A stretch of 64,000 bases of DNA from a virus, in IMG/VR virus record IMGVR_UViG_3300036780_000209, positions 102,499-166,498 of that record. One strand, written 5' to 3'. The notes below the pieces were generated by a model. The model did not search any database, was not told where the DNA came from, and saw only the letters and a list, made by a program, of their open reading frames with translations. The first letter of the stretch is position 1. Every line of letters starts with the position of its first letter. A program made the position numbers and the translations under genes. Below, one piece after another: positions 30,257 to 51,240 of this stretch.

Positions 30257-32398
30257 CTACCCCTTGTAATTGAGCACCTGGCTGAGTACATGCTGCACCC
30301 GGCAGAGGTCGGACTGAGCCTCCATCACCAGGTCAATGTCCTTGTAGGCCTGCGGGTGCTCGTCCACCAGGTCCTTCGCCCGGTCCTCGTTCCAGGTGCG
30401 GCCCGTCATCGCCTTCTTGAGGGAGCTGCCGGTCAGCTCCCGGCGGGCCTGGCCCCGGCTGAGGCGGCGGCCCGCACCGTGGCTGCACGACAGGTAGGAA
30501 GCAGTGTTAGCCAGGCCGCTGACAACATAGGAGCGCGTTCCCATCGAGCCCGGGATGATCCCCTCATCGCCTGCGCCGGCCTTGATCGCGCCCTTGCGGG
30601 TGATCCACAGCTCGCGGCCCAGGTGCTCCTCGCGCTGGGTGAAATTGTGGTGGCAGTTGATGGTGCGCACCACCTTGCCCTTGCCGACGACCTGGAACAG
30701 GGACTTCGTGAGCGCGCCGACCATCTGCTCGCGGGACGCCATGGCGTAGCGCTGAGCCCAGAGCATGTCATGGATGTAGGCGCTGAACTCGTCGGTGCCC
30801 TCGGCCAGGTAGGCCAGGTCCGGGTCCTCCAGGTGCACGAGCGTCTTCTTCATCACGCCCTTGGCGGCGTTGATGTGCATGGTGGCGAGCTGGTTGCCGA
30901 TGCCCCGGGATCCTGAGTGCAGCACGGTCCAGACGACATCGCGCTCGTCCAGGCAGACCTCGACGAAATGGTTGCCCGACCCGAGGGTTCCGAACTGGAC
31001 CTCTGCCGTGGCCCGCTGCTTGGGCGACAGCGAGGTAAACGGCAGGCCGATCGCATCATAGGCGGCGAAATGCGGGGCCACGGCGATGGTCCAGTGGTCC
31101 GGGTCGTGGCCCTTGCCCACTCCGGCCGGGATGCGCTGCTCGATCAGGGACATCAGCGTGCGCGTCTCCTTGCCGACCTTCACGCGCTGGGTGCCCAGGT
31201 CCGGCAGGTCGGCGGCGGTCAGGCTGGTCTCGCTGGCCACCATCCCGCAGTTGCCGGTCATGACGATATTGCCGCCACGGCGCATGACCCAGAAGCCTGA
31301 CGGGACCTTGAAGCAGTACGCCTTCCCATCCTCAGCCGGCACCATGGTAATCGGGGTCTTCGGGACGCCCGCCATGGAGACCATGGTCTTATCGTGCCGG
31401 AATACCCGGTAGTCCAGCTTCCCGTCTTCGTCTACGTCAGCACGGAGAACGGCCCGGCGACCGCAGGCGGTGAAGGCATAATGAATGAAGTCAGCAGATT
31501 CCTTGTCTCGCGTGTAGAAGCAACCCTCTACCACGTTCCCGTCCCAGTTCAGGCACTCATCAGTGACATGCATAAGCTGGTTCAGGTGAGCTGGCCAGAA
31601 GGACTCGTAGGATTTCGAGTACAGCGGTGGCCGGAAGCGGAAGGCAGTGACCTCATCCGCGCTCACGTTCTCGGTCCAGGAGATGCCAGCATTAGCCAGC
31701 AGCTTGCGGGCACGCTCGATCTTGCGCTCCTTCTTGAGGCGGACTACTGCTTTCCTGCCGCCGTCATCGAGATGCCCGTCAGCATTGACCATGACCTGAA
31801 CCCGGATCTCCTCAGCGGTGAGATCAATCTCGGTAGCAAGATCAGGAATAAAGGTGGTAGCGAAGCGAGCCTTGAAACCCTGCTTGAGACGGGCATGCTC
31901 GGCAGCGAAATGATCGGCGGTCATGGTGGTCATGACCGTGCGGCGATCCCGGCCGGTGACCTTCCAGCAGAGCACCCGGTGGTCTGCTGTGAGCACCTGG
32001 TCAATCCCGTACTTCGTCCGGAGACGATAGAACGACTCACATGGCTGCACGACGAACGCCTCGGGCTGGACGAAGCGACCCACCCCATACCCCGGCACGT
32101 ACTGCATCACCAGGCCGCCGTCATACTCGCTGATCTTGCGCCAGCCCGCAGGCGACAGGTACTCACTGTCCTTGTCTACACACCCGATGTCCACTCCGAC
32201 GGCAGCGGGAATGACCGCGCCCTCCGTGGGAATGACAGAGCCGACGGTCGCGCCGATGCCGACGTGGGCGTCGGGCATCAGGGCCACGTGCCCTGGCACG
32301 AACGGCATCCGGGAGGCCTTGGCCGCCTGGTCGATCGTTCCCTGCTCCATCAGCGGCCGGCCCCAGGCCAGCACCTTGTCTGCTGCCCGCTCAGGCAT
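30257..32398 (-). CDS. rtcB: RtcB RNA ligase with intein
   Basis: MPDAH.G.G, VGVDIG^CGM, GTLGSGNHF.E, HSGSRG.G, HHN, PGSMG, SHGAGR and DEHPQAYK. Start re-called at MPERAAD. Confidence 0.95.
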   Translation of the reverse strand: MPERAADKVLAWGRPLMEQGTIDQAAKASRMPFVPGHVALMPDAHVGIGATVGSVIPTEGAVIPAAVGVDIGCVDKDSEYLSPAGWRKISEYDGGLVMQYVPGYGVGRFVQPEAFVVQPCESFYRLRTKYGIDQVLTADHRVLCWKVTGRDRRTVMTTMTADHFAAEHARLKQGFKARFATTFIPDLATEIDLTAEEIRVQVMVNADGHLDDGGRKAVVRLKKERKIERARKLLANAGISWTENVSADEVTAFRFRPPLYSKSYESFWPAHLNQLMHVTDECLNWDGNVVEGCFYTRDKESADFIHYAFTACGRRAVLRADVDEDGKLDYRVFRHDKTMVSMAGVPKTPITMVPAEDGKAYCFKVPSGFWVMRRGGNIVMTGNCGMVASETSLTAADLPDLGTQRVKVGKETRTLMSLIEQRIPAGVGKGHDPDHWTIAVAPHFAAYDAIGLPFTSLSPKQRATAEVQFGTLGSGNHFVEVCLDERDVVWTVLHSGSRGIGNQLATMHINAAKGVMKKTLVHLEDPDLAYLAEGTDEFSAYIHDMLWAQRYAMASREQMVGALTKSLFQVVGKGKVVRTINCHHNFTQREEHLGRELWITRKGAIKAGAGDEGIIPGSMGTRSYVVSGLANTASYLSCSHGAGRRLSRGQARRELTGSSLKKAMTGRTWNEDRAKDLVDEHPQAYKDIDLVMEAQSDLCRVQHVLSQVLNYKG
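31250..32182 (-). mobile_element. 311-aa intein in RtcB
   Basis: Begins CVDKDSEYL, has block B VLTADHRVL and a LAGLIDADG-like VMVNADG, and ends MTGN/C at the VDIG|CGM site. Confidence 0.92.
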
Positions 32399-32468
32399 CA
32401 GTACCACCTCGTCTCTGATTACAAGGTATCTTATCAAGCAACTCGTTATCTTCGAAGAAAGGATCACC

Positions 32469-32705
32469 GTGAAGAAGATCATCAAGGGCATCGGCTCACT
32501 CGGGCTCACCGCCGCGTCGGCCCTGCTCGCGGGTGCCTGCTACGAGCACGGACGGAAGATCGGCAAGGGGGAGGCCAAGTTCTCTCCCGAGGCACTCGGC
32601 TCCACCGCCCACGGCTTCATGACCAAGGTGGTCATGAAGGTCGTGGAGCAGCGGGCCAGGCTCGCAGCCGAGCAGGCCGCAGCCAAGGCCAAGTCCAGGG
32701 GCTGA
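32469..32705 (+). CDS. Hypothetical protein
   Basis: AAAGGA RBS and GTG start, divergent from rtcB and followed by a terminator. Confidence 0.55.
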   Translation: MKKIIKGIGSLGLTAASALLAGACYEHGRKIGKGEAKFSPEALGSTAHGFMTKVVMKVVEQRARLAAEQAAAKAKSRG

Positions 32706-38624: not shown

Positions 38625-38771
38625 GGATTGCCTCCTTCCCACCTTCCGGGGGACCGGAGGGGGAGGAGCAGTAAAAGCTGATGGCCCTCGTGCCGGCCGC
38701 TGCGCCTCCGGGGCGCTTGGCGAGCACGAGGGCCAGAGCAGTTCACTCCGCAGCGGAAACGAGAAGCCGGG

Positions 38772-38843
38772 AGACCCCTAGCGGATTCGAACCGCTGTGA
38801 CTGACTTTGCAGGCCAGCACCTAAACCACTCGGCCAAGGGGCC
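38772..38843 (-). tRNA. tRNA-Cys(GCA)
   Basis: Cloverleaf, loop CT GCA AA, T-loop TTCGAAT. Confidence 0.9.
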
Positions 38844-38966
38844 GCAAAGGAGACCAGGCAGTGTAAGAGCCCCGTCTGAGGGGGATGGCTTACCTGATCT
38901 CCAGCGAGACGCCGGATGCACCTTATCCTCCGGAGCGACCAGGGTGTGAGGCTACTCATCTCGCCG

Positions 38967-39039
38967 TGAGCCTGGAGGGAATCGAACCCCCGGCAATCTC
39001 TTTAGGAAAGAGGCACTCTATCCCCTGAGTTACAGGCCC
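38967..39039 (-). tRNA. tRNA-Arg(CCT)
   Basis: Cloverleaf, loop TT CCT AA. Confidence 0.88.
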
Positions 39040-39164
39040 GTGAGCCGGTTGGGTAGGGACCGGCAGCCCCCTGGCCTCGCCGTGTTTAGATCACGCCACT
39101 GACCGGCAAGCCGGGGATGGCGATCGGAGAGAGTCCCTCAGGCCAGTGGAACCCTATCTCCCCG

Positions 39165-39237
39165 CGCTCTCAGAGGGACTCGAACCCCCGACCCGCAGCT
39201 TCGGAAGCTGCCGCTCTATCCGCTGAGCTATAAGAGC
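39165..39237 (-). tRNA. tRNA-Arg(CCG)
   Basis: Cloverleaf, loop TT CCG AA. Confidence 0.92.
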
Positions 39238-39383
39238 ATGCTGTGCCGGCCTCACCCTCTAGCCGGCCCGGGGACCCTGCCCATGACCGCGTCCCTACTT
39301 TGCTCGGAGGGGCCGTTCCGGACCATAGCTACCCTCAGTGAACGAAGCACCGACTCTCATCGGTGCCCGGCCGGTTCACGCAG

Positions 39384-39457
39384 TGCTCTTAGCCGGATTC
39401 GAACCAGCCGCCTGCACCTTCGCAAGGTGCTGCTCTATCCTGCTGAGCTATAAGAGC
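39384..39457 (-). tRNA. tRNA-Arg(GCG)
   Basis: Cloverleaf, stem GCACC/GGTGC, loop TT GCG AA. Confidence 0.88.
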
Positions 39458-39523
39458 AAAGACCCGGGATTCGGAGAACCTTGAGGAGGCGTTTCTTCCT
39501 CCTGCGCGCCGCCGGGACAGCGC

Positions 39524-39606
39524 TGGTGCCAGGCGAGGGACTCGAACCCCCGTACCCGTAGGACGTGATTTACAGTCACGCGCGATTGCCGCTCTGCCAG
39601 CCTGGC
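39524..39606 (-). tRNA. tRNA-Tyr(GTA)
   Basis: Long variable arm, loop CT GTA AA, encoded CCA. Confidence 0.92.
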
Positions 39607-39607
39607 A

Positions 39608-39683
39608 TGGGGTCCCCGGCGGGATTCGAACCCGCGAATACCAGGCTCACAACCTGGTCCCGAATGCCACCTGGTTCGGGGAC
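39608..39683 (-). tRNA. tRNA-His(GTG)
   Basis: Loop TT GTG AG, C73, encoded CCA. Confidence 0.88.
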
Positions 39684-39685
39684 AG

Positions 39686-39759
39686 TAGGCGATGCAGGGA
39701 TCGAACCTGCGGCCTCCGCTGTGTGAAAGCGGCGCTCTTCCGACTGAGACTAATCGCCC
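39686..39759 (-). tRNA. tRNA-Val(CAC)
   Basis: Loop TT CAC AC. Confidence 0.9.
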
Positions 39760-39852
39760 ATGTGACACGAGCAGGAATTGTCTGCACATTCCACCTGCAT
39801 CAGCCTTAAGTCCGTGCAGGGACTTTCAGGTTGCGGATGCCGTGTCTCATCC

Positions 39853-39927
39853 TGGTACTCCCAGAGGGATTCGAACCCCCATTAACAGGTCCGTAACCTG
39901 TCGTGATATCCGTTTCACTATAGGAGC
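39853..39927 (-). tRNA. tRNA-Arg(ACG)
   Basis: Loop TT ACG GA, encoded CCA. Confidence 0.9.
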
Positions 39928-39985
39928 ATGCGCACCTGATGGCCGGGCGGTGCCCTCCCGATGCGGGGTCGGTCAAACCCTGCCG

Positions 39986-40059
39986 TGGACCTACCTGGGC
40001 TCGAACCAGGGACCTCTGCCGCGTCGAGGCAGCGCTCTTCCAATCTGAGCTACAAGTCC
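39986..40059 (-). tRNA. tRNA-Val(GAC)
   Basis: Stem CTGCC/GGCAG, loop TC GAC GC (C at position 33). Confidence 0.8.
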
Positions 40060-40062
40060 AGT

Positions 40063-40300
40063 GGCCGGAGTCTTGGCGAATTCCCGCGCTCCTCGCGGAG
40101 GCGCTCTCCGGGTCAGTCCCGGAGGACTGCAGGGGCTACCCTGGGGAAATGGTCCAGCCTGTCCTGATGCCAGGGCACGTGCAGGGCGTCCCCCGCTGTA
40201 GAGGATCCAGGGGCACGGGTACTGTCCCCTGAAACCTCGTTAGGCAGTTTCACCTGCCACGGGAGGGTCAGCGGTGACTAGTACGCTGCTGCCTCCGGCC
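40063..40300 (-). ncRNA. Candidate 238-nt structured RNA
   Basis: Closed by an 8-bp GGCCGGAG/CTCCGGCC stem, with several internal hairpins. Confidence 0.5.
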
Positions 40301-40303
40301 GAG

Positions 40304-40343
40304 CGGTCCCTACGAGACTTGAACTCGCGACCTCTGCCTTGAC
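40304..40343 (-). pseudogene. 3' half of a second tRNA-Asp(GTC)
   Basis: GTCAAGGCAGAGGTCGCGAGTTCAAGTCTCGTAGGGACCG with no matching 5' half. Confidence 0.8.
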
Positions 40344-40349
40344 CAGAGG

Positions 40350-40760
40350 TCAGGCGGCTGCGCCTGGAGAGACCTCGTACTGCTGAGCCCAGCGAACATG
40401 CTGAGCCTGATTGTTGTTGGTCGGCTCAACCCTAAGCCGGCCCTCTCGCTCACCTACATCCCCCACCGGCACCAAGTACACCTTGTCCAGGGCCGGACAG
40501 TAAACCCCAAACAGGTCAGCATCTCCTCGGTACCCCATGGAACTCTGATCGCGCCGTAGGCTATGCGGCCGGAACAGGACGCAGCCCTGCTGGTAGACCG
40601 CCGTTTTGCATTGCACCCGGACCAGGGTGCCGTCGCCGCCGTCATAGGCCAGGTCGTATCTGTGGCCACCGCCGAACGGGATCAGGACTCGCTTGCCGAG
40701 CCGCAACAAGGCCGCGAGCACGATCCCTTCAGTTTGACTACCTTTGTCCGTTGTGTTCAC
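40350..40760 (-). CDS. I-Ssp6803I-like PD-(D/E)XK homing endonuclease
   Basis: T..KG...E...L..G..VLIPFG...RYDL..D....L.RVQCKT...Y..DADLFGVY....KVYLVPV. Confidence 0.85.
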   Translation of the reverse strand: MNTTDKGSQTEGIVLAALLRLGKRVLIPFGGGHRYDLAYDGGDGTLVRVQCKTAVYQQGCVLFRPHSLRRDQSSMGYRGDADLFGVYCPALDKVYLVPVGDVGEREGRLRVEPTNNNQAQHVRWAQQYEVSPGAAA

Positions 40761-40784
40761 GAGACCTATGTTACATGCTGACAG

Positions 40785-40858
40785 CGGTCCTGACGGGATT
40801 TGAACCCGCGACCTCCACCTTGACAGGGTGGCGAGCACTCCAACTGCTCTACAAGACC
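40785..40858 (-). tRNA. tRNA-Asp(GTC)
   Basis: Cloverleaf, loop CT GTC AA. Confidence 0.93.
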
Positions 40859-40982
40859 ATGTGGTCCGACTAGGCAGGATTCTGGACTGCAGTTTCCTAA
40901 AACCTGCCGGGCACCCTCCGGTTAGGGCATCGGACCTGCCCAGGCCAAGCTAGCCGGTTTATCGCTTAGCGCTTGACCATCG

Positions 40983-41055
40983 CTCCCCTGTCAGGATTCG
41001 AACCTGAAACCCTCCGGTTAACAGCCGGACGCTCCGCCAGTTGAGCTACAAGGGA
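40983..41055 (-). tRNA. tRNA-Asn(GTT)
   Basis: Loop CT GTT AA. Confidence 0.92.
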
Positions 41056-41092
41056 TTAATCAGCCTCCCGGCTTATTAGCAGGGAGGCTTCG

Positions 41093-41166
41093 TAGCGGGA
41101 GTCGGATTCGAACCGACGTTCTGTGGGTTATGAGCCCACCGAGATACCGAGCTTCTCCATCCCGCG
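41093..41166 (-). tRNA. Initiator tRNA-fMet(CAT)
   Basis: Starts CGCGGG and has three consecutive G-C pairs in the anticodon stem. Confidence 0.85.
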
Positions 41167-41207
41167 TCGCCAACGCTAGCATCCCTGACGGGGAAATGCA
41201 AGCAAAG

Positions 41208-41279
41208 TAGTCCCAGAGGGAGTTGAGCCCTCTTTTCCGGGGTGAAAACCCGGCGTCCTAACCCGTAGACGATGGGACC
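41208..41279 (-). tRNA. tRNA-Glu(TTC)
   Basis: Loop TT TTC AC, variant T-loop CTCAACT. Confidence 0.85.
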
Positions 41280-41338
41280 AGGGTGCCGGCTCAGCAGCGC
41301 GATCGTCTGCCCGGCTTCCCGGCAGCCTGAGCCGGTCG

Positions 41339-41412
41339 CAGTGCGTACGGGGCTCGAACCCGTCATCTCCGCCTTGAGAGGGCGGCGTCTTGTCCGTCTC
41401 GACCAACGCACC
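41339..41412 (-). tRNA. tRNA-Glu(CTC)
   Basis: Loop CT CTC AA. Confidence 0.92.
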
Positions 41413-41518
41413 ATGAGGTACGGCGAGCCGGCTTGCGGCCTGCCCGCTTTAGGATCCGGGCAGCTAAACCCGGCGGCTATTCAGAGCCATTCCTCTTAGG
41501 CCGCGTACCCGGCCCGTG

Positions 41519-41591
41519 CGCACCATGAAGGATTCGAACCTTCGCCCGTCTGCTTAGAAGGCAGCCGCGCTATCCGCTGCGCCAATGGTGC
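41519..41591 (-). tRNA. tRNA-Arg(TCT)
   Basis: Loop CT TCT AA. Confidence 0.9.
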
Positions 41592-41595
41592 TCAG

Positions 41596-41666
41596 TGCCC
41601 CGCCGAGGTATCGAACCCCGTTCCGCCGGGTAAAAGCCGGTTACATCACCTTAATGCTTGCAGGGC
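41596..41666 (-). tRNA. tRNA-Lys(TTT)
   Basis: Loop CT TTT AC. Confidence 0.88.
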
Positions 41667-41671
41667 ATGCG

Positions 41672-41745
41672 TAGACCCCCTGAGGATCGAACTCAGCTCA
41701 TACCGGGTATAAGCCGGCTCCCCGCAACCAGCGTGGCTAGGGTCC
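41672..41745 (-). tRNA. tRNA-Ile(TAT)
   Basis: Stem GCCGG/CCGGT, loop CT TAT AC. Confidence 0.82.
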
Positions 41746-41750
41746 ATGAA

Positions 41751-41928
41751 GAATGTCCTGGTGTGCTGCTACGCCAAAGGCCCTGGAGGCAACCACGAGC
41801 CGCACGCCTTCCGGGCATGCGGGACGGCCGTCCCAGCCCGCGTACTTCGGCCTTCCAGGTTAACCAGGTGGCCACCTGGCCCACTCCTTAGAGGATGGCT
41901 GCTTCTAAGCCAACCTTCCAGGACATTC
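41751..41928 (-). ncRNA. Candidate RNA mimicking the 23S rRNA uL11-binding domain (H43-H44)
   Basis: 11-bp perfect closing stem. Contains GTTGGCTTAGAAGCAGCCATC and a GCGTAGCAGC hairpin. Confidence 0.75.
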
Positions 41929-41930
41929 AG

Positions 41931-42002
41931 TAGCGAGAGGGAATTGCGACATCCCGACCTCCGCCTTATGAAAGCGGCGTTCTTCCTCTGAACTATCTCG
42001 CC
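41931..42002 (-). tRNA. tRNA-Met(CAT), elongator or Ile2 type
   Basis: Loop TT CAT AA, atypical T-loop. Confidence 0.75.
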
Positions 42003-42178
42003 ATGTGGGCCGGCCGGCTGCGGAACATCCGGACGGGCGTGGGATGCCTGTCCAGCCAGCACATGAAGCACTGAGGCCATGCGCGGCCGGAGCGGAACAT
42101 CACTTCCTTGCTGATCTTGTCTTCCCGGGCGCGGTCGGTGCAGTCCCTGCACGCCTGCCAGGTACCCATTGTGTTCAC
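41993..42178 (-). CDS. Possible small Zn-binding protein
   Basis: CRDC...CFMC in 61 aa filling a tRNA spacer. No clear RBS. Confidence 0.35.
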   Translation of the reverse strand: MNTMGTWQACRDCTDRAREDKISKEVMFRSGRAWPQCFMCWLDRHPTPVRMFRSRPAHMAR

Positions 42179-42179
42179 G

Positions 42180-42253
42180 TAGACCGCCGAGGAGTTGAAC
42201 CTCGCCGCTAACTGCGTATCAGGCAGTCCCCTTCACCGGTTGGGTAGCGGTCC
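42180..42253 (-). tRNA. tRNA-Ile(GAT)
   Basis: Loop CT GAT AC. Confidence 0.88.
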
Positions 42254-42404
42254 TTGAGTCTCGCCGCTTCTTCATCCGAGCGGCGTGACCAGCCCTGCAG
42301 ATATCACATTTACAACCATGCTTACGATACATAGCAACACTGCCATGCTTAAACCCATTAATCCAGCTAGGATTATCTCCCGATTCCCTGGTGCTGGTGC
42401 CCAT
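42219..42404 (-). pseudogene. Probable remnant of an endonuclease-associated Zn-finger domain
   Basis: HGSVAMYRKHGCKCDICR in an AT-richer patch that overlaps tRNA-Ile. Confidence 0.4.
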
Positions 42405-42439
42405 GACTGATGCTCGCGCATCAGGGTACGTACTATGCC

Positions 42440-42607
42440 ATGTTCGCAATCATCGCAGTGGTCCTGTTCGCCATCGCCACGCTCATCGCGTTCACGTCAC
42501 TCAGCGGGATCTCGGTCCTCGGGCTGATCGCGGCGGGGCTGCTGTGCATTGCCCTGCACCTGGCCATCGGCGGGACCGTCACGATCCCGTGGCATCGCCA
42601 GCCGTAA
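42440..42607 (+). CDS. Small two-helix membrane protein
   Basis: MFAIIAVVLFAIA...GLLCIALHLA with high GC3, antisense to the tRNA array. Confidence 0.65.
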   Translation: MFAIIAVVLFAIATLIAFTSLSGISVLGLIAAGLLCIALHLAIGGTVTIPWHRQP

Positions 42608-42608
42608 G

Positions 42609-42694
42609 CGGATCGCGGAGGTCCCGACCCCCAGCCCCGTGAAGGACCCTTCCGCTTTCAAGGCGGAGGCCGCCGCCTGACGGCTTCACGATCC
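42609..42694 (-). tRNA. tRNA-Ser(TGA)
   Basis: Long variable arm, loop CT TGA AA. Confidence 0.85.
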
Positions 42695-42780
42695 AGGTGG
42701 CGCATGCCAGGACTCCCGCCGGTCCTGGCTCGGCGGTGCCTGGCTCCAGGACTTGTGGTTCCCGGTGCGCCGCCGGGAAG

Positions 42781-42867
42781 CGGATGACGGAGTACTCGAA
42801 ACCCACCCCCTTGCAGGAGCCAGCCGCTTTCGAGGCGGAGCCGGTGCGCCTGCCCGGTTCGTCATCC
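42781..42867 (-). tRNA. tRNA-Ser(CGA)
   Basis: Long variable arm, loop CT CGA AA. Confidence 0.87.
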
Positions 42868-42947
42868 AGGGTGATCCCGTTAGGCAGGTCTGCGCCCTGC
42901 AGCCCGTGCGCACGGACAGCCCGGGTACAGGATCAAGCCGGGCTTTG

Positions 42948-43033
42948 CGGATGACGGAGAGCCCGAGTCCCAGCCCCTTCACGGGACCCGCTCCGTTTCC
43001 AGCGGAGGCCGGCGCCTTGCCGGTTCATCATCC
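42948..43033 (-). tRNA. tRNA-Ser(GGA)
   Basis: Long variable arm, loop CT GGA AA. Confidence 0.87.
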
Positions 43034-43248
43034 ATGTTCCCGGAGTATGGCATTACCCGATTCTGCCAGGGACTTGCGCTGGTCTAGTGACCTCGCCATG
43101 CGATGCGGTCGGGACACGTGTCGCACACGCAAGGTGCCAGCCAGGCCGCCAGGAGCGGCCTGCACGGCCTGGGCTCTCCTGAGTCCGCCGTAGCCATGGC
43201 AGCGGGGAGAGCGACGGAATCGAACCGTCCCGGGCATGCCCGGCCTAG

Positions 43249-43335
43249 CGGAGAGCGGACTACTCGAAAGCCACCCCCTTGCGGGAGCGATCCGGCTAGC
43301 AACCGGTCCCAGCGCGCCTGTCTGGTTCACCCTCC
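43249..43335 (-). tRNA. tRNA-Ser(GCT)
   Basis: Long variable arm, loop TT GCT AG. Confidence 0.87.
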
Positions 43336-43450
43336 ATGCTGACCCGTTCGCCCTCCGCGACGGCTGGGCAGCCGTCCGAGGTACTGGGCAGGGCTTGGTC
43401 GCGACACCGTTCGCCCTGGAGGCGGCCACGGCTCCTCAGCCGCCTCTTCG

Positions 43451-43524
43451 TACTCTCGGAGGGATTCGAACCCTCAACATCCACGCCCTGAACGTGGCGA
43501 CTCTACCAATTGGCCTACGAGAGC
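43451..43524 (-). tRNA. tRNA-Leu(CAG), short variable loop
   Basis: Loop TT CAG GG, 5-nt variable region. Confidence 0.88.
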
Positions 43525-43638
43525 ATGGTCCCGGCACTTCTGCCCGTCCAGGCGCTACCTGGACTTCGCCGCTGCCGGGCGCTGGCGGGCTTTGGCGTGA
43601 TCACGGGTCCCTGGCCAGGGCGCACCGCGCTCACCCAG

Positions 43639-43711
43639 AGCGGCTGACGGGAATCGAACCCGCGACCTCCACCTTGGCAAGGTGGCGCTCTGCCTGCTGA
43701 GCTACAACCAC
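43639..43711 (-). tRNA. tRNA-Gly(GCC)
   Basis: Loop TT GCC AA. Confidence 0.92.
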
Positions 43712-43770
43712 ATGCAGGGCTTGCGCCCCGTTAAAGCCGGCCCTGCGTCCGGCACTGAGCAAATACTGCG

Positions 43771-43843
43771 AGGGGACGACGGGGGTCGAACCCGCGACAT
43801 CGTGCTTGGGAAGCACGCACTCTGCCATCTGAGTTACGTCCGC
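43771..43843 (-). tRNA. tRNA-Gly(CCC)
   Basis: Loop TT CCC AA. Confidence 0.88.
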
Positions 43844-43853
43844 ATGTTCAGGA

Positions 43854-43976
43854 TCAGCGGGTGCAGTTAACGCAGCACCCGCTGCCGTGCTGGCTGCAAT
43901 GCAGGAGATCCATTCCGATGCAGTATCCGCAACGACATCCGCAGGTTCCGGCCTGACCGCAGTTACTGGCTTCCAT
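43854..43976 (-). CDS. 40-aa Cys-rich, metallothionein-like peptide
   Basis: AAAGGAG RBS 6 nt before ATG. Translation MEASNCGQAGTCGCRCGYCIGMDLLHCSQHGSGCCVNCTR*. Confidence 0.7.
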   Translation of the reverse strand: MEASNCGQAGTCGCRCGYCIGMDLLHCSQHGSGCCVNCTR

Positions 43977-43999
43977 GCTGATCTCCTTTACTCATAGCG

Positions 44000-44072
44000 A
44001 GCCTGCTGCGGGATTTGAACCCGCGCCCTCTTCCTTACCAAGGAAGCGCTCTGCCGCTGGAGCTAAGCAGGC
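44000..44072 (-). tRNA. tRNA-Thr(GGT)
   Basis: Loop TT GGT AA. Confidence 0.92.
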
Positions 44073-44191
44073 ATGATGCTGGGCCTTGGCAGGTCCCTTT
44101 CTTCCCCTCAGGGGCCGCCTGCGGAAATAGCGCTCCTCGCCCGGCTTCAGAGCGCTTCCGGTGACGGCAGGGAATCCTGCCAGAATTTATG

Positions 44192-44262
44192 CTGACCCGC
44201 CTGGACTCGAACCAGGACTACCGGGGCCAAAACCCGGCGGACTGCCATTGCCCTACGAGTCA
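44192..44262 (-). tRNA. tRNA-Gln(TTG)
   Basis: Loop TT TTG GC. Confidence 0.9.
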
Positions 44263-44443
44263 ATGTATTACCATCGGGTGCCGGAATCGAACCGGCTTCT
44301 CTGCTTTCCGGCAGTATCTCCACCAGGAATACGAACCCTCCGGTCATAGGGAAGCGTGCTTACCGGCTCACTTACACAACGGGACCTTGATCCCGGACAG
44401 GTTGCCGACGGTGCCCCGTTTAAGCCTGCCACCTCTTCCCACG

Positions 44444-44516
44444 AGCCCGCTACAGGGATCGAACCTGCGGCCTGCGCTTTACAAGAGCGCCGCTCTTCCA
44501 ACTGAGCTAAGCGGGC
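44444..44516 (-). tRNA. tRNA-Thr(TGT)
   Basis: Loop CT TGT AA. Confidence 0.92.
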
Positions 44517-44653
44517 ATGGTTGCCGGGGGCGGCAGCCATTAACGGAAAACGTGAGCCAGCGCCATCTCCGGCAAGCTCCGGGCGGCGGGAAGCCTCGAA
44601 CCTTCCCCGGGAGTCCGACCACGGGTGCCGTGGCTGCGCGAACCGCCCTTCCG

Positions 44654-44727
44654 TATCCTCGGCGGGACTCGAACCCGCACTGCCGACGCCCTCAACGTCG
44701 TGCCTCCTGCCATTGGGCTACGAGGAC
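44654..44727 (-). tRNA. tRNA-Leu(GAG), short variable loop
   Basis: Loop TT GAG GG. Confidence 0.88.
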
Positions 44728-44791
44728 ATGATGCGCGAGGTCGCAGGTCTGCGACCCTAAGACGTTCAAGGTCGCACGGATGCCACCTTAG

Positions 44792-44864
44792 AGCCCGAGC
44801 GCGGTCTCGAACCGCGTGCCTGCGCATTACGAGTGCGCCGCTCTCCCAGGTGAGCTACACGGGC
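44792..44864 (-). tRNA. tRNA-Thr(CGT)
   Basis: Loop CT CGT AA. Confidence 0.92.
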
Positions 44865-44989
44865 ATGATCCTGCTCAAGCGTGCGGACGGGCTTTCGCCT
44901 CCGCTGATATATCCCTACCATCACGGGCCGCTAGCAGCCCCGGGAACGGCTCCGGGCCAGGAAGCCGGTACCTGAGCAGGACGACTGAT

Positions 44990-45237
44990 CCTGATGCCTC
45001 ATCCGAACGCCGCGCCGTTCCGGAGTTCCGCCGGTCCCTGGCCAGGTGAAGCGGCTGTTCCTGCGGTCATGGGGCTTATCGGCCTGCCTCTTAGAGTGAG
45101 ATATCCGGAGGTCCTGGCCTCGGCCAGGTTTAAATGCCTGACTGTACCTCAGCTCAACCGGGTAATCCCGCAAGGCCTCAGCTTATCGTCCCTCAGGACT
45201 CCCGCTTTCCGGCACGGCGAACGGAAGAAGCATCAGG
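44990..45237 (-). ncRNA. Candidate 248-nt structured RNA
   Basis: Closed by CCTGATGC/GCATCAGG with further long-range stems. Confidence 0.5.
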
Positions 45238-45243
45238 CATGAG

Positions 45244-45319
45244 CTGCCCACCCTGGGATCGAACCAGGAAAGTCTCCCGGGTCAGAGCCGGGCGGGTCTG
45301 CCAATTCCCCCAGTGGGCA
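45244..45319 (-). tRNA. tRNA-Gln(CTG)
   Basis: Loop CT CTG AC. Confidence 0.9.
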
Positions 45320-45333
45320 TTGTTATTACTGCG

Positions 45334-45408
45334 TGCGCGAAGAGGGAGTCGAACCCTCACACGCCTCATTTTGAGTGAGGCAGCTCTGCCAGTTGGACTT
45401 ACTCGCGC
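45334..45408 (-). tRNA. tRNA-Leu(CAA), short variable loop
   Basis: Loop CT CAA AA. Confidence 0.88.
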
Positions 45409-45465
45409 AAGGCTGGCTCCCGCTGCCACGGAAGCCAGTTACTACGGAACCGCCAGGTAAACGCG

Positions 45466-45538
45466 TGCGCCGTGAGGGACTCGAACCCCCGGCCCGCTGA
45501 TTAAGAGTCAGCAACTCTACCCACTGAGTTAACGGCGC
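45466..45538 (-). tRNA. tRNA-Lys(CTT)
   Basis: Loop CT CTT AA. Confidence 0.93.
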
Positions 45539-45620
45539 AAGATCAGGAATCTCCCTGGCGATGAGGAGCCTACTAACATGGCCGCCAGGCACCTGTTTCG
45601 ACCCCGGAAACTCCTGATAG

Positions 45621-45691
45621 AGCGGGTAGGGGGAATCGGACCCCCGTCACGTGCTTGGAAGGCACGGTCTCTGCCACTGAGTTATACCCGC
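45621..45691 (-). tRNA. tRNA-Gly(TCC)
   Basis: Loop CT TCC AA. Confidence 0.9.
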
Positions 45692-45701
45692 ATTGACTAC
45701 T

Positions 45702-45772
45702 CGCGACACAACGGGACTCGAACCCGTACCTGGGGATTGTGTCCCCCGTGCTGCCGATTACACCATGCGTCT
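45702..45772 (-). pseudogene. tRNA-like element with a 5-nt anticodon loop
   Basis: Intact D and T arms, but stem GGGGA/TCCCC encloses only CACAA. Confidence 0.7.
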
Positions 45773-45825
45773 CAGCCGGGGAGCGACCCTGACCGCAGCT
45801 AAGGGAAGGATCCTTTCCCTTCGCG

Positions 45826-45896
45826 TGTCCCCTGACGGATTCGAACCGCCGTATCCTGGGCTTCAACCAGGCGCTCTTCCCCTGAGCTAAAGAGAC
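45826..45896 (-). tRNA. tRNA-Phe(GAA)
   Basis: Loop TT GAA GC. Confidence 0.9.
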
Positions 45897-46030
45897 GTGG
45901 ATTCGGGCCGGCCCCAGGTTCCACCCCTCTTTCTGAGAGACGGATCCCGGGCTTCGCGAAATGCAGCGGCGGCAGCCTGGCTAGGGCCGTCGCTTCTGAC
46001 CGCTCGGGGGAGCCATCCCACCAGCCCACG

Positions 46031-46102
46031 TCGGGAGGCGGGGACTCGGACCCCGTCTACCTGCTCCCAAAGCAGGCGCGCTCACCCTTACGCGACATCC
46101 CG
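46031..46102 (-). tRNA. tRNA-Pro(TGG)
   Basis: Loop TT TGG GA. Confidence 0.88.
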
Positions 46103-46182
46103 GTGAAAATGAAGACAGCGGCCTGGCAGCCAGGTATCCCCGGTCCAGCAGGCAGTGAGGACTCCCATCTCAGCGCCGTCCG

Positions 46183-46256
46183 TCGGGCTGGAGGGATTCG
46201 AACCCCCGGCCTCCTGACCCCCAGTCAGGCGCTCTGCCAAGCTGAGCCACAACCCG
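46183..46256 (-). tRNA. tRNA-Pro(GGG)
   Basis: Loop CT GGG GG. Confidence 0.92.
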
Positions 46257-46326
46257 ATTAAGAGGCCAGCACGGACTTTCACCGCCGCATACAGCGGGGC
46301 TTGTCTCATCCCCTTTGTGACCTCAG

Positions 46327-46401
46327 TCGGGCTGGAGGGATTCGAACCCCCGGCCTCCGCGTCCCGAACGCGGCGCGCTAACCAAGCTGCGCTACAACCC
46401 G
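46327..46401 (-). tRNA. tRNA-Pro(CGG)
   Basis: Loop TT CGG GA. Confidence 0.93.
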
Positions 46402-46484
46402 ATTGCGGGGCTTCGCTCGCCACTGGCGTATCCGTAGGGCTTTCACCCGGGGAGCAGGATTCGAACCTGCGTACCAGCCCCTCG

Positions 46485-46557
46485 TGGACCACGGGGGATT
46501 CGAACCCCCCACCTCCCGGGTGCAGACCGGGTGCTCTGCCAACTGAGCTAGCAGCCC
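46485..46557 (-). tRNA. tRNA-Ala(TGC)
   Basis: G3:U70, loop TC TGC AC. Confidence 0.88.
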
Positions 46558-46727
46558 ATGCGGCAACCGCGATCTTTGTCTTGATCCGCTGCCTTGTGTG
46601 CTTAGGACGGCGACTCCTCATACAAAGAGAGACACACGAACGACCGTCACAACGCTGGTGACGCTGCTCTGCTGGCTACCATGCCAGTCAGGACCAGGAG
46701 CATTTTCAGTTTCGGCCGAAACTCCCG

Positions 46728-46800
46728 TGGACCTACCCGGAATCGAACCGGGGACCTCTCCCGTGCGAGGGGAGCGCGCTACCTGCTGCGCCATAAGCCC
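46728..46800 (-). tRNA. tRNA-Ala(CGC)
   Basis: G3:U70, loop CT CGC AC. Confidence 0.92.
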
Positions 46801-46921
46801 GTGGAGCCCCGAGTGATTCCGGCCAGGGCGCTTGGAGTCGCGCCTGGTCATGCCGGTTACCATTGTCAGCCGACTGCTAGCAGGACGGCTTCCGGATGCC
46901 GTGCCACGGCTCGGGACATTA

Positions 46922-47097
46922 CGAGGGGCGCTCTGCCGCTGAGCTACCAGCCACCTAGGGCCGGAGCCCATCACCAGTGGCCGGGCAGGATTCGAACCCG
47001 CGACCTCCCCCCTGCTTGCGGAGGGGGCTCTGCGACTTGAGCTATCCCGGCATGGATGGGGCCGGGACCAGGCCTTGCACCTGGATCTCCCTCCTCG
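46922..47097 (-). ncRNA. Tandem circularly permuted tRNA-like RNA
   Basis: Two T-arm > looped acceptor stem > D-arm modules, closed by CGAGG/CCTCG. Confidence 0.7.
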
Positions 47098-47170
47098 TGG
47101 AGCGACGGGGACTCGAACCCCGGACCTCTTGCGTGCCACGCAAGCGCTCTACCTGCTGAGCTATAGCCCC
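47098..47170 (-). tRNA. tRNA-Ala(GGC)
   Basis: G3:U70, loop GT GGC AC. Confidence 0.92.
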
Positions 47171-47469
47171 ATGGATCTTCCTGCCAGGGCCGCCCTTATC
47201 CCTGGCAAAACCCCGGCCGGAGCCGAGCAGAGCCCGGGCAGGACCCTGGCAGGAAGTAATTCCCGAACGGTTTGTTTCATGATCAGGCGAGGCTCACACC
47301 AAGACGACGGCCGGAGATCTCCTCCGGCACCATGCCCGCCCGGGAAGTTACTGCCGGCGACCGCGTGAGCCCAGGTTGGCAGCCTGGCGCGCTCGCCGTA
47401 CTTCTCGTTTCCGCTGTGGAGTTCTCAAGAAACGATCACATTACCCGGACTAGGTCCGGTGGTGATCCG

Positions 47470-47540
47470 CAGGCCCGGAGGGACTCGAACCCCCATTACT
47501 GGTTTTGGAGACCAGCGCTCTGCCGTTGAGCTACGTGCCT
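47470..47540 (-). tRNA. tRNA-Trp(CCA)
   Basis: Loop CT CCA AA. Confidence 0.93.
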
Positions 47541-50863: not shown

Positions 50864-51240
50864 GGCGCTCTGCACGGAACCACTGAGCTGAGGCCCCGAT
50901 CCGGTTGACCGGACGGGGCCTCATCCATTACAGTCTTCCTTGGCAACAAGCTCAAGTTCAAGCTCAAGCTGATCGCCAGCGAAGCCAGCAGTCGCAGGTT
51001 CGAATCCTGCCCCCTGCACCCGTGCAGGGGTACCTCAGCCCGGATAGAGGACTGGTCGCAGCGTCAAGCTCAAGCTCGTGCCGAAGCTCAGACCAGCCAC
51101 CGGTACCCGATCGAGACCGACGGGAAACGGGCAAACTGTGGGGGTTCGATTCCTCCCGGGGCGGCCACGACGCCCCGTAGCTCAACGGCAGAGCATGTGC
51201 CCCTCAGAGATGAACCGCACGGTTAAAAGCTGCAGGTGCC
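50864..51240 (+). ncRNA. Candidate ~377-nt RNA with two permuted tRNA modules and CAAGCT repeats
   Basis: Ends pair (GGCGC-T-CTGCA / TGCAG-GTGCC). Modules at 50994-51050 and 51140-51194. Confidence 0.75.

Follow-up and report, generated by a model that had tools for sequence, protein, structure and literature searches.

A tRNA operon as a putative platform for accessory elements: end-closed RNA cassettes in the spacers of a phage tRNA array

The final 64 kb of the 166,498-bp IMG/VR virus record IMGVR_UViG_3300036780_000209 (guanine-cytosine (GC) content ~65%) were examined; this stretch of 64,000 nucleotides is referred to as the window. It contains a long tRNA array on the minus strand, in which the spacers between the tRNA genes take up more sequence than the tRNAs themselves. 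The tRNA tally consists of 41 genes called by ARAGORN, one found only by Rfam at 41931-42002, and three probable tRNA-Ser genes that score below threshold. The non-tRNA share of the array is 64%, or 61% once the three extra tRNA-Ser genes are added, in agreement with an earlier interpretation made without database searches (the sequence-only reading), which had put it at more than half. The array and the two spacer RNAs that can be followed into other phages are as follows.

38770-47540, minus strand: tRNA array, 45 tRNA or tRNA-like genes, 61% inter-tRNA sequence
41746-41930, minus strand: mimic of the H43/H44 GTPase-associated centre (GAC) of 23S rRNA, the uL11/thiostrepton site, identified by cmscan and folding; folding z = -3.5
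46262-46324, minus strand: conserved 63-nt hairpin RNA between tRNA-Pro(CGG) and tRNA-Pro(GGG), here called the Pro-spacer hairpin

Inside the array, no sigma-70-like promoters were found and terminator-like hairpins are not in excess, which is compatible with one long transcript but falls short of proof. The nucleotide at position -1 is U in 33 of the 45 tRNAs, and CAU precedes 20 of the 45; nothing comparable to this CAU bias is present in the related arrays described below. After the discriminator base, only the first C of the CCA end is encoded in the tRNAs of the array. The sequence-only reading had proposed a per-spacer Rfam scan as a check; at an expectation value (E) <= 5 this returned tRNA, a large-subunit (LSU) rRNA fragment and a sub-threshold YrlA match, and nothing further in the array.

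Are the two ends of a spacer complementary more often than expected by chance? The sequence-only reading had described many such spacers, and the six stems that it located individually (40063-40300, 41751-41928, 44869-44981, 44990-45237, 47177-47256 and 41286-41335) are all present exactly as described. A test that is independent of chosen boundaries was applied to all spacers of 50-400 nt, by recording the longest exact complement between the first and the last 25 nt. The mean longest terminal stem is 5.35 bp, compared with 4.45 bp in dinucleotide shuffles (standard deviation 0.17) and 4.52 bp in a mispaired-ends control, in which the 5' end of one spacer is set against the 3' end of another. 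Terminal stems of at least 7 bp are found in 7 of 34 spacers, where 1.2 would be expected; when only the outer 12 nt are considered, stems of at least 6 bp are found in 5 of 34, against an expectation of 0.6. The excess over chance is therefore real, but closed spacers make up about one fifth of the total and not most of it, and the "nested stems" that had been noted at 39040-39164 and 39241-39383 are weak (5-6 bp, with z-scores of -0.3 and -1.2).

Folding energies give a similar picture. Dinucleotide shuffles had been recommended as the reference, and the mean folding z-score of the spacers against them is -1.61 on the transcribed strand. This is lower than the mean of -0.40 for 60 random pieces of the same genome (Mann-Whitney p = 8e-6), and the transcribed strand is more structured than the reverse complements of the spacers, which have a mean z-score of -1.11 (paired Wilcoxon p = 0.0025). 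Individually, z-scores below -2 are reached in only 8 of 35 spacers.

End closure is not peculiar to this phage. Among 155 distinct spacers from 47 other phage loci, a survey from which GAC-bearing spacers were left out, 18.7% have terminal stems of at least 7 bp, compared with 2.7% of shuffles and 2.1% of mispaired ends. The excess is also found in all four arrays that are syntenic with the one studied here. Terminal closure is thus statistically real and general across phage tRNA arrays. In the best cases the closing stem starts 0-2 nt past one tRNA and stops 3-6 nt short of the next; since the stem ends lie nearly flush with the tRNAs, an excised unit would carry almost no single-stranded ends.

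The GAC cassette lies between the tRNA at 41931-42002 and tRNA-Ile(TAT), and is closed by an 11-bp stem (41751-41928). Its core at 41861-41922 corresponds to positions 1092-1152 of the LSU model (cmscan E 1.4e-5) and matches the consensus exactly in the H43 loop and stem, while H44 is split by an insert of ~100 nt, after which its 3' strand follows. In comparison with the GTPase-associated centre of 23S rRNA (H42-H44, about 1051-1108 in Escherichia coli), the H43 loop consensus is the same, whereas the phage unit is free-standing, is ~180 nt long, and has an interrupted H44 and an 11-bp closing stem. The near-invariant 18-nt core of the H43 loop and stem, GGCUUAGAAGCAGCC, occurs exactly in at least 117 viral contigs ranging in GC content from 31 to 69%. 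Signs of a 23S gene, namely sarcin-ricin-loop or peptidyl-transferase motifs, were found in none of 118 loci with a GAC copy. For 76 of the 118 copies there is a tRNA within 500 nt, and copy and tRNA then invariably share a strand.

The lower pair of H43 (-4,+18) covaries. In 89 distinct phage copies it is GC in 35, UA in 29, AU in 18 and CG in 5, so that 98% are paired, compared with 21-66% in slid controls; in the phage studied here the lower stem is AGG/CCU. The GAC mimic is undescribed in Rfam 15 and in the literature searched. On this comparative evidence, the cassette is a true structured RNA, and the element that it copies belongs to the translation machinery. It occupies a different junction in each of five arrays. 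The string CGAAGUACG (~41830-41860, minus strand), inside the insert, is common to this cassette and to that of one related array (G002 below), and GAAGUAC-like strings are present in many other copies of the GAC mimic.

The Pro-spacer hairpin has a 45-nt core that is 87-89% identical in two other arrays, compared with a median of ~67% for orthologous tRNAs. Six pairs of its 7-bp closing stem differ between the arrays, four by double compensatory changes and two through G-U intermediates, and all of them pair. A covariance model of the hairpin has members in three arrays only, and no further members were found when the same model was run over 137 loci. As judged from its conserved pairing, the hairpin is a genuine structured RNA gene. 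Resemblances to a hammerhead ribozyme, to RNase P P4 or to group II intron domain 5 (a GAUGAG...GAAAGUCC motif) were considered and rejected, as Rfam gave no support and the pairing does not fit.

Four related arrays were reached through the GAC core and the Pro-spacer motif, and are designated G002, G006, G001 and L071/L002. The order of tRNAs is near-identical across these four and the array studied here. Two of the related arrays are loose, with 64% and 73% spacer, whereas in the two compact ones the median spacer is 3-5 nt. Spacer lengths at the same junction differ widely between arrays: 81 and 1 nt; 3, 226 and 0 nt; 180 and 14 nt; 724 and 66 nt. Because orthologous junctions range from 0 to several hundred nucleotides, and because compact relatives exist, most spacers are likely to be dispensable accessories. 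Detectable homologues in the relatives are limited to the GAC cassette and the Pro-spacer hairpin. Covariation across related phages, another check suggested by the sequence-only reading, was found in the H43 stem and the Pro-spacer stem, these being the only two spacers with homologues. In the G002 lineage, a separate hairpin spacer has preserved its stem through two double changes; covariation is observed at three stems in all. Compared across the arrays, spacer content appears as accessory and mobile against a conserved tRNA backbone.

Some spacers of the relatives hold RNAs of familiar families. In L071, the Thr(GGT)>Gly(GCC) spacer holds a class A RNase P RNA of full length (263.7 bits; positions 1-367 of the model), at L071:1687-2014 on the plus strand (the same as G007:C1:1687-2014), on a contig classed as viral by IMG/VR. 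An Rfam scan found no RNase P RNA in the genome studied here or in G001, G002 and G006. In G002, the 88-nt Gly(GCC)>Leu(CAG) spacer is filled by an RNA resembling that of the signal recognition particle (SRP, 4.5S), at L129:5556-5653 on the plus strand; it has the conserved domain IV loop, and its 37.8 bits fall short of the gathering score of 40. The orthologous Gly>Leu spacer in the array studied here is not SRP-like. The Rfam scan also gave a YrlA-like match in a spacer of G001.

A closer look at the spacers reveals additional tRNAs and parts of tRNAs.

43248-43335, minus strand: tRNA-Ser(GCT), below the ARAGORN default threshold
~42947-43034, minus strand: tRNA-Ser(GGA), likewise below threshold
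42780-42867, minus strand: tRNA-Ser(CGA), likewise below threshold
46895-47052, minus strand: tRNA-like gene with a 9-nt anticodon loop (46977-47052) and an overlapping YrlA-like module (46895-47022)
46402-46483 (spacer), minus strand: orphan canonical T arm within a GGGG/CCCC stem, resembling a tRNA minihelix
near 44296, 43229 and 40328, minus strand: further orphan T arms

The three extra genes, which are probable tRNA-Ser genes, lie within an apparent 755-nt spacer (42695-43449). Ser(GCT) and Ser(CGA) are called by ARAGORN at a 90% threshold, and the Rfam tRNA model reports none of the three at E <= 5. An alignment can be made of the three together with the called tRNA-Ser(TGA) at 42608-42694. 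In all four (42608-43335) the acceptor stem is 8 bp, the T stem is 4 bp and the variable arm is long. This non-canonical design brings tRNA-Sec or allo-tRNA to mind. One tRNA-Ser of the same type is found in G001 beside a canonical tRNA-Ser; G002 instead has four canonical ones.

In the YrlA-like module, alignment shows a permuted order of T arm, acceptor-like stem-loop and D arm. Its score with the YrlA model (RF02553) is 32.7 bits, which is below the gathering score of 69, and tandem modules of a similar kind outside the array (50966-51221, plus strand) score 33.1 and 30.5 bits. No match to a TROVE (Ro60/Rsr) gene was found in the whole 166-kb record. With scores of 30-33 bits against 69 and no Ro60/TROVE gene, membership of the YrlA family is not established. 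The permuted module is probably a genuine structured RNA gene; alternatively, together with the tRNA-like gene that it overlaps, it may be a tandem tRNA remnant. Orphan T-arm hairpins number six in the spacers on the transcribed strand and zero on the other, with 0.03 expected from shuffles.

Other spacers contain protein-coding sequence or its remains. Coding scores given here are based on codon usage trained on 53 long genes; ORF stands for open reading frame and GC3 for GC content at third codon positions.

40350-40838, minus strand: ORF resembling a PD-(D/E)XK homing endonuclease (PF11645), domain in residues 28-156
~40313-40343, minus strand: 3'-half remnant of tRNA-Asp with T arm, after the endonuclease ORF
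42219-42449, minus strand: remnant of low GC content, similar in sequence to HNH endonucleases at their C-terminus
41993-42178, minus strand: coding-like 61-residue CxxC...CxxC ORF (GC3 0.87, codon score +0.39)
42410-42607, plus strand: coding-like small ORF in spacer 42254-42607, score 0.76
42433-42582, minus strand: coding-like small ORF in the same spacer, score 0.49
43854-43976, minus strand: 40-residue Cys-rich ORF with an AGGAG Shine-Dalgarno motif upstream and a neutral coding score (-0.01)

The PF11645 match reaches 98.3 bits against a cut-off of 26.1 and covers positions 2-137 of the 138 in the profile. The order at 40313-40838 on the minus strand is intact tRNA-Asp, endonuclease ORF and 3'-half remnant of tRNA-Asp, which looks like the footprint of an endonuclease insertion accompanied by duplication. 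The spacer filled by the 61-residue ORF is unstructured (z +0.3). The small spacer ORFs have no Pfam or PHROG matches. Zinc-ribbon-like CxxC...CxxC ORFs occur in array spacers both at 41993-42178 (minus strand) and in G002, at about 6040-6130 of L129, where the ORF sits just upstream of the GAC cassette. The sequence-only reading had taken the spacers for a library of diverse stable RNAs; as a description of the spacers as a whole this does not hold, given that tRNA-Ser genes, an endonuclease, ORFs and tRNA fragments make up a good part of them.

There remain a number of folded units to which no role can be assigned. The individual z-scores of those among them that the sequence-only reading had picked out, listed below, are biased, because their boundaries were chosen after the stems had been seen.

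44990-45237, minus strand: 248-nt stem-closed unit, 8 bp exact, interrupted helix of ~25 bp; z -4.8
44869-44981, minus strand: 113-nt stem-closed unit with 9 exact pairs and a folded helix of 12 bp; z -2.3
47177-47256, minus strand: 80-nt hairpin unit with a 13-bp closing stem, ending 6 nt before tRNA-Ala(GGC); z -4.0
45539-45619, minus strand: 81-nt spacer forming a single closed hairpin with a 13-bp closing helix in the fold; z -3.7
41280-41337, minus strand: 58-nt spacer with a 9-bp closing stem (41286-41335) that begins 2 nt past tRNA-Glu
40063-40300, minus strand: 238-nt unit closed by an 8-bp stem and lying downstream of the endonuclease gene; z -3.6

The units 44990-45237 and 44869-44981 together tile the entire Gln>Thr spacer to within a few nucleotides of both tRNAs, the latter ending 4 nt ahead of tRNA-Thr(CGT), and no homologue of the former was found in the related arrays. 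The junction occupied by 45539-45619 is 1 nt long in a related array. The suggestion that several spacers resemble parts of the translation machinery is retained for the GAC mimic, with its covarying H43 stem, but not for 40063-40300: a search of 1.1 Mb of other phage array loci gave no second occurrence of its 16S h14-like 11-mer, its ends are not seen again in other arrays, and the likeness is taken to be due to chance.

As to the wider setting, the 166-kb record is rated complete by CheckV, and the proteins encoded in the window include a baseplate J protein and an RtcB ligase. The latter is a 750-residue RNA ligase (30257-32509, minus strand; PF01139, 339 bits, residues 414-750) with a long N-terminal extension; its gene is ~6 kb from the tRNA array, and is consistent with a theme of RNA repair. 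A megablast search against 50,697 phage records returned only matches of tRNA size, with no close cultured phage. The two proteins flanking the array have no relatives in the viral or metagenome contigs searched, and a motif scan of metagenome contigs yielded one short contig, which is kin to G002 and not to the phage studied here. The baseplate J protein has no match in the records of G001, G002, G006, G007 and G008, including the complete 130-kb G006. The array may travel as a unit among phages that are otherwise unrelated; alternatively, divergence may have put the baseplate J protein beyond detection.

How can a conserved order of tRNAs be reconciled with such varied spacers? The explanation that we favour, with modest confidence, is that this tRNA operon offers the slots between its tRNA genes to accessory elements of mixed kinds, which land there and are expressed from it. 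A minority of slots would hold real structured RNA genes, namely the GAC mimic, the Pro-spacer hairpin and probably the YrlA-like module; others would be occupied by the unusual tRNA-Ser genes, the homing endonuclease, small protein genes and tRNA debris, and the remainder by fast-turnover sequence without an assignable role. RNase P would cut at the 5' end of each tRNA, a step to which the U at -1 is suited, and a 3' endonuclease or exonucleases would act past each tRNA. As CCA is incompletely encoded, 3' endonuclease cleavage or trimming would be needed, followed by CCA addition. The insert would thereby be freed with a 5' overhang of 0-2 nt and a 3' overhang of 3-6 nt.

An insert with paired ends would fold alone and leave the folding of the neighbouring tRNAs undisturbed, and once excised it would resist exonucleases. 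The compact relatives indicate that tRNAs mature well when they are nearly abutting, and a self-closing insert would restore that geometry. We infer that closure is a condition for cassettes to be tolerated and stable, and not proof of function for each of them.

Several points weigh against this explanation. The co-transcription, release and stability of the cassettes are all inferred. About three quarters of the spacers are without significant end closure, so that closure is no strict requirement. The units 44990-45237, 47177-47256, 45539-45619 and 40063-40300, with z-scores of -3.6 to -4.8, could be functional RNAs specific to this lineage; that homologues are missing for units other than the GAC cassette and the Pro-spacer hairpin is weak evidence against function, given the strong divergence of the arrays (median tRNA identity about 67%).

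Alternatively, the stems might serve only to process the transcript, by RNase III-type or structure-dependent cleavage, or to insulate the tRNAs, with the excised spacers being degraded and only the GAC mimic acting in trans. We regard this as unlikely, although the generality of closure over unrelated arrays, regardless of spacer sequence, is in keeping with it, as are the rapid turnover of spacers with tRNA order retained and the compensatory changes that have kept a simple hairpin spacer in another lineage. The comparison with the leader-trailer stalks of rRNA (rrn) operons, which are cleaved by RNase III, is instructive. In both cases the flanks of a unit pair into a closing helix. However, most closing stems in the array are 7-13 bp, which is short for RNase III when set against a duplex criterion of about 20 bp or more; only the helix of 44990-45237 (~25 bp, with bulges) comes near to such stalks, a point in favour of this alternative, and no stem sequence is common between units. 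Spacers of 0-5 nt suffice for tRNA maturation in the compact relatives, and a stem is therefore unneeded for processing itself. Furthermore, the 45-nt core of the Pro-spacer hairpin exceeds the tRNAs in conservation, which a mere processing stem would not need.

A more far-reaching proposal, and one that we consider improbable, is that nearly every spacer is a purpose-built stable non-coding RNA, freed by tRNA punctuation, and that these RNAs jointly form an arsenal of translation decoys. The GAC mimic and the tRNA-like modules are what this proposal would predict, and it could also accommodate the RNase P RNA and SRP-like RNA in spacers of relatives, the overall surplus of end closure and of folding on the transcribed strand, and the unexplained units with z-scores of -3.6 to -4.8. 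By contrast, strong folding (8 of 35 spacers) and end closure (7 of 34) are both confined to a minority, tRNAs, ORFs and tRNA debris account for much of the spacer sequence, and orthologous junctions vary from 0 to hundreds of nucleotides, with two relatives being compact. Only two spacers are conserved, the 16S-like likeness of 40063-40300 is absent elsewhere, and the RNase P RNA of the relative is full-length and so seems to be a working copy, not a decoy.

The weakest of the three alternatives, and a very improbable one, is that terminal complementarity is a DNA-level footprint, such as mobile-element inverted repeats or recombination sites, with no role in RNA: cassettes such as the GAC mimic do lie at different junctions in each array, and a homing endonuclease and an HNH remnant are present, but self-comparison shows that no two spacers share ends or any sequence, and hence there is no repeated element family, while the transcribed strand is significantly more structured than its complement and closing stems are kept by compensatory substitutions that include G-U intermediates.

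If the array is a platform for accessory elements, as we favour, which known systems does it resemble? RNAC and RNAD of bacteriophage T4 (species 1 and 2) are encoded inside the T4 tRNA gene cluster. Here, as in T4, non-coding, structured RNAs are found among phage tRNA genes on the same strand, and presumably derive from common precursors. The scale is different, since in T4 there are two RNAs beside eight tRNAs, and here up to a dozen candidate units between 45 tRNAs. Accumulation has been demonstrated for the T4 RNAs; the present units are candidates. The function of RNAC and RNAD is still unknown (PMC9697503).

Mycobacteriophages are known to encode YrlA-like RNAs (Chen et al. 2014, PMC4201824). 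The module described here has the same permuted tRNA-like core as YrlA and bacterial Y RNAs; however, published YrlA genes adjoin Ro60, and this phage combines the low scores given above with the lack of a Ro60/TROVE gene. Release of sequences by tRNA punctuation also has precedents. In the mitochondrial model, in plant t-elements and in MALAT1 mascRNA, RNase P and 3' nucleases cut at tRNA-like structures and free the intervening sequence. Those systems release mRNAs or a single non-coding RNA, whereas many short structured RNAs are predicted here.

The literature searched contained no general treatment of the RNAs that lie in the spacers of phage tRNA arrays. Small stable RNAs in a phage tRNA cluster were already known from T4, and YrlA-like RNAs from mycobacteriophages; what is new here is the quantified, general end closure of phage tRNA-array spacers, the picture of a tRNA backbone that is conserved while its RNA slots can be swapped, and the conserved hairpin of the Pro spacer. 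To our knowledge, phage tRNA arrays are currently discussed solely as sets of tRNAs for codon supply or anti-defence. A note of caution is that not every spacer is a designed RNA, and much of the "non-tRNA" sequence in this array consists of missed tRNAs, small ORFs and debris. The outcome is a short, concrete set of candidate units on which small-RNA mapping and binding assays could be tried.

It is tempting to extend the argument to large phages in general, which would use tRNA operons as platforms for swappable self-closing RNAs that act on host translation or RNA surveillance; this is a tentative idea that we would not at present expect to hold. If it were true, the RNAs carried on such platforms would be imitations or copies of a ribosomal factor-binding site, of RNase P RNA, of SRP RNA and of Y-like RNAs, and 44990-45237, 44869-44981, 47177-47256, 45539-45619 and the Pro-spacer hairpin would be further members of the repertoire. 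Taken together, end closure, the GAC mimic and the RNase P, SRP-like and Y-like RNAs of the relatives point to a second payload of the tRNA array that is ignored by routine annotation.

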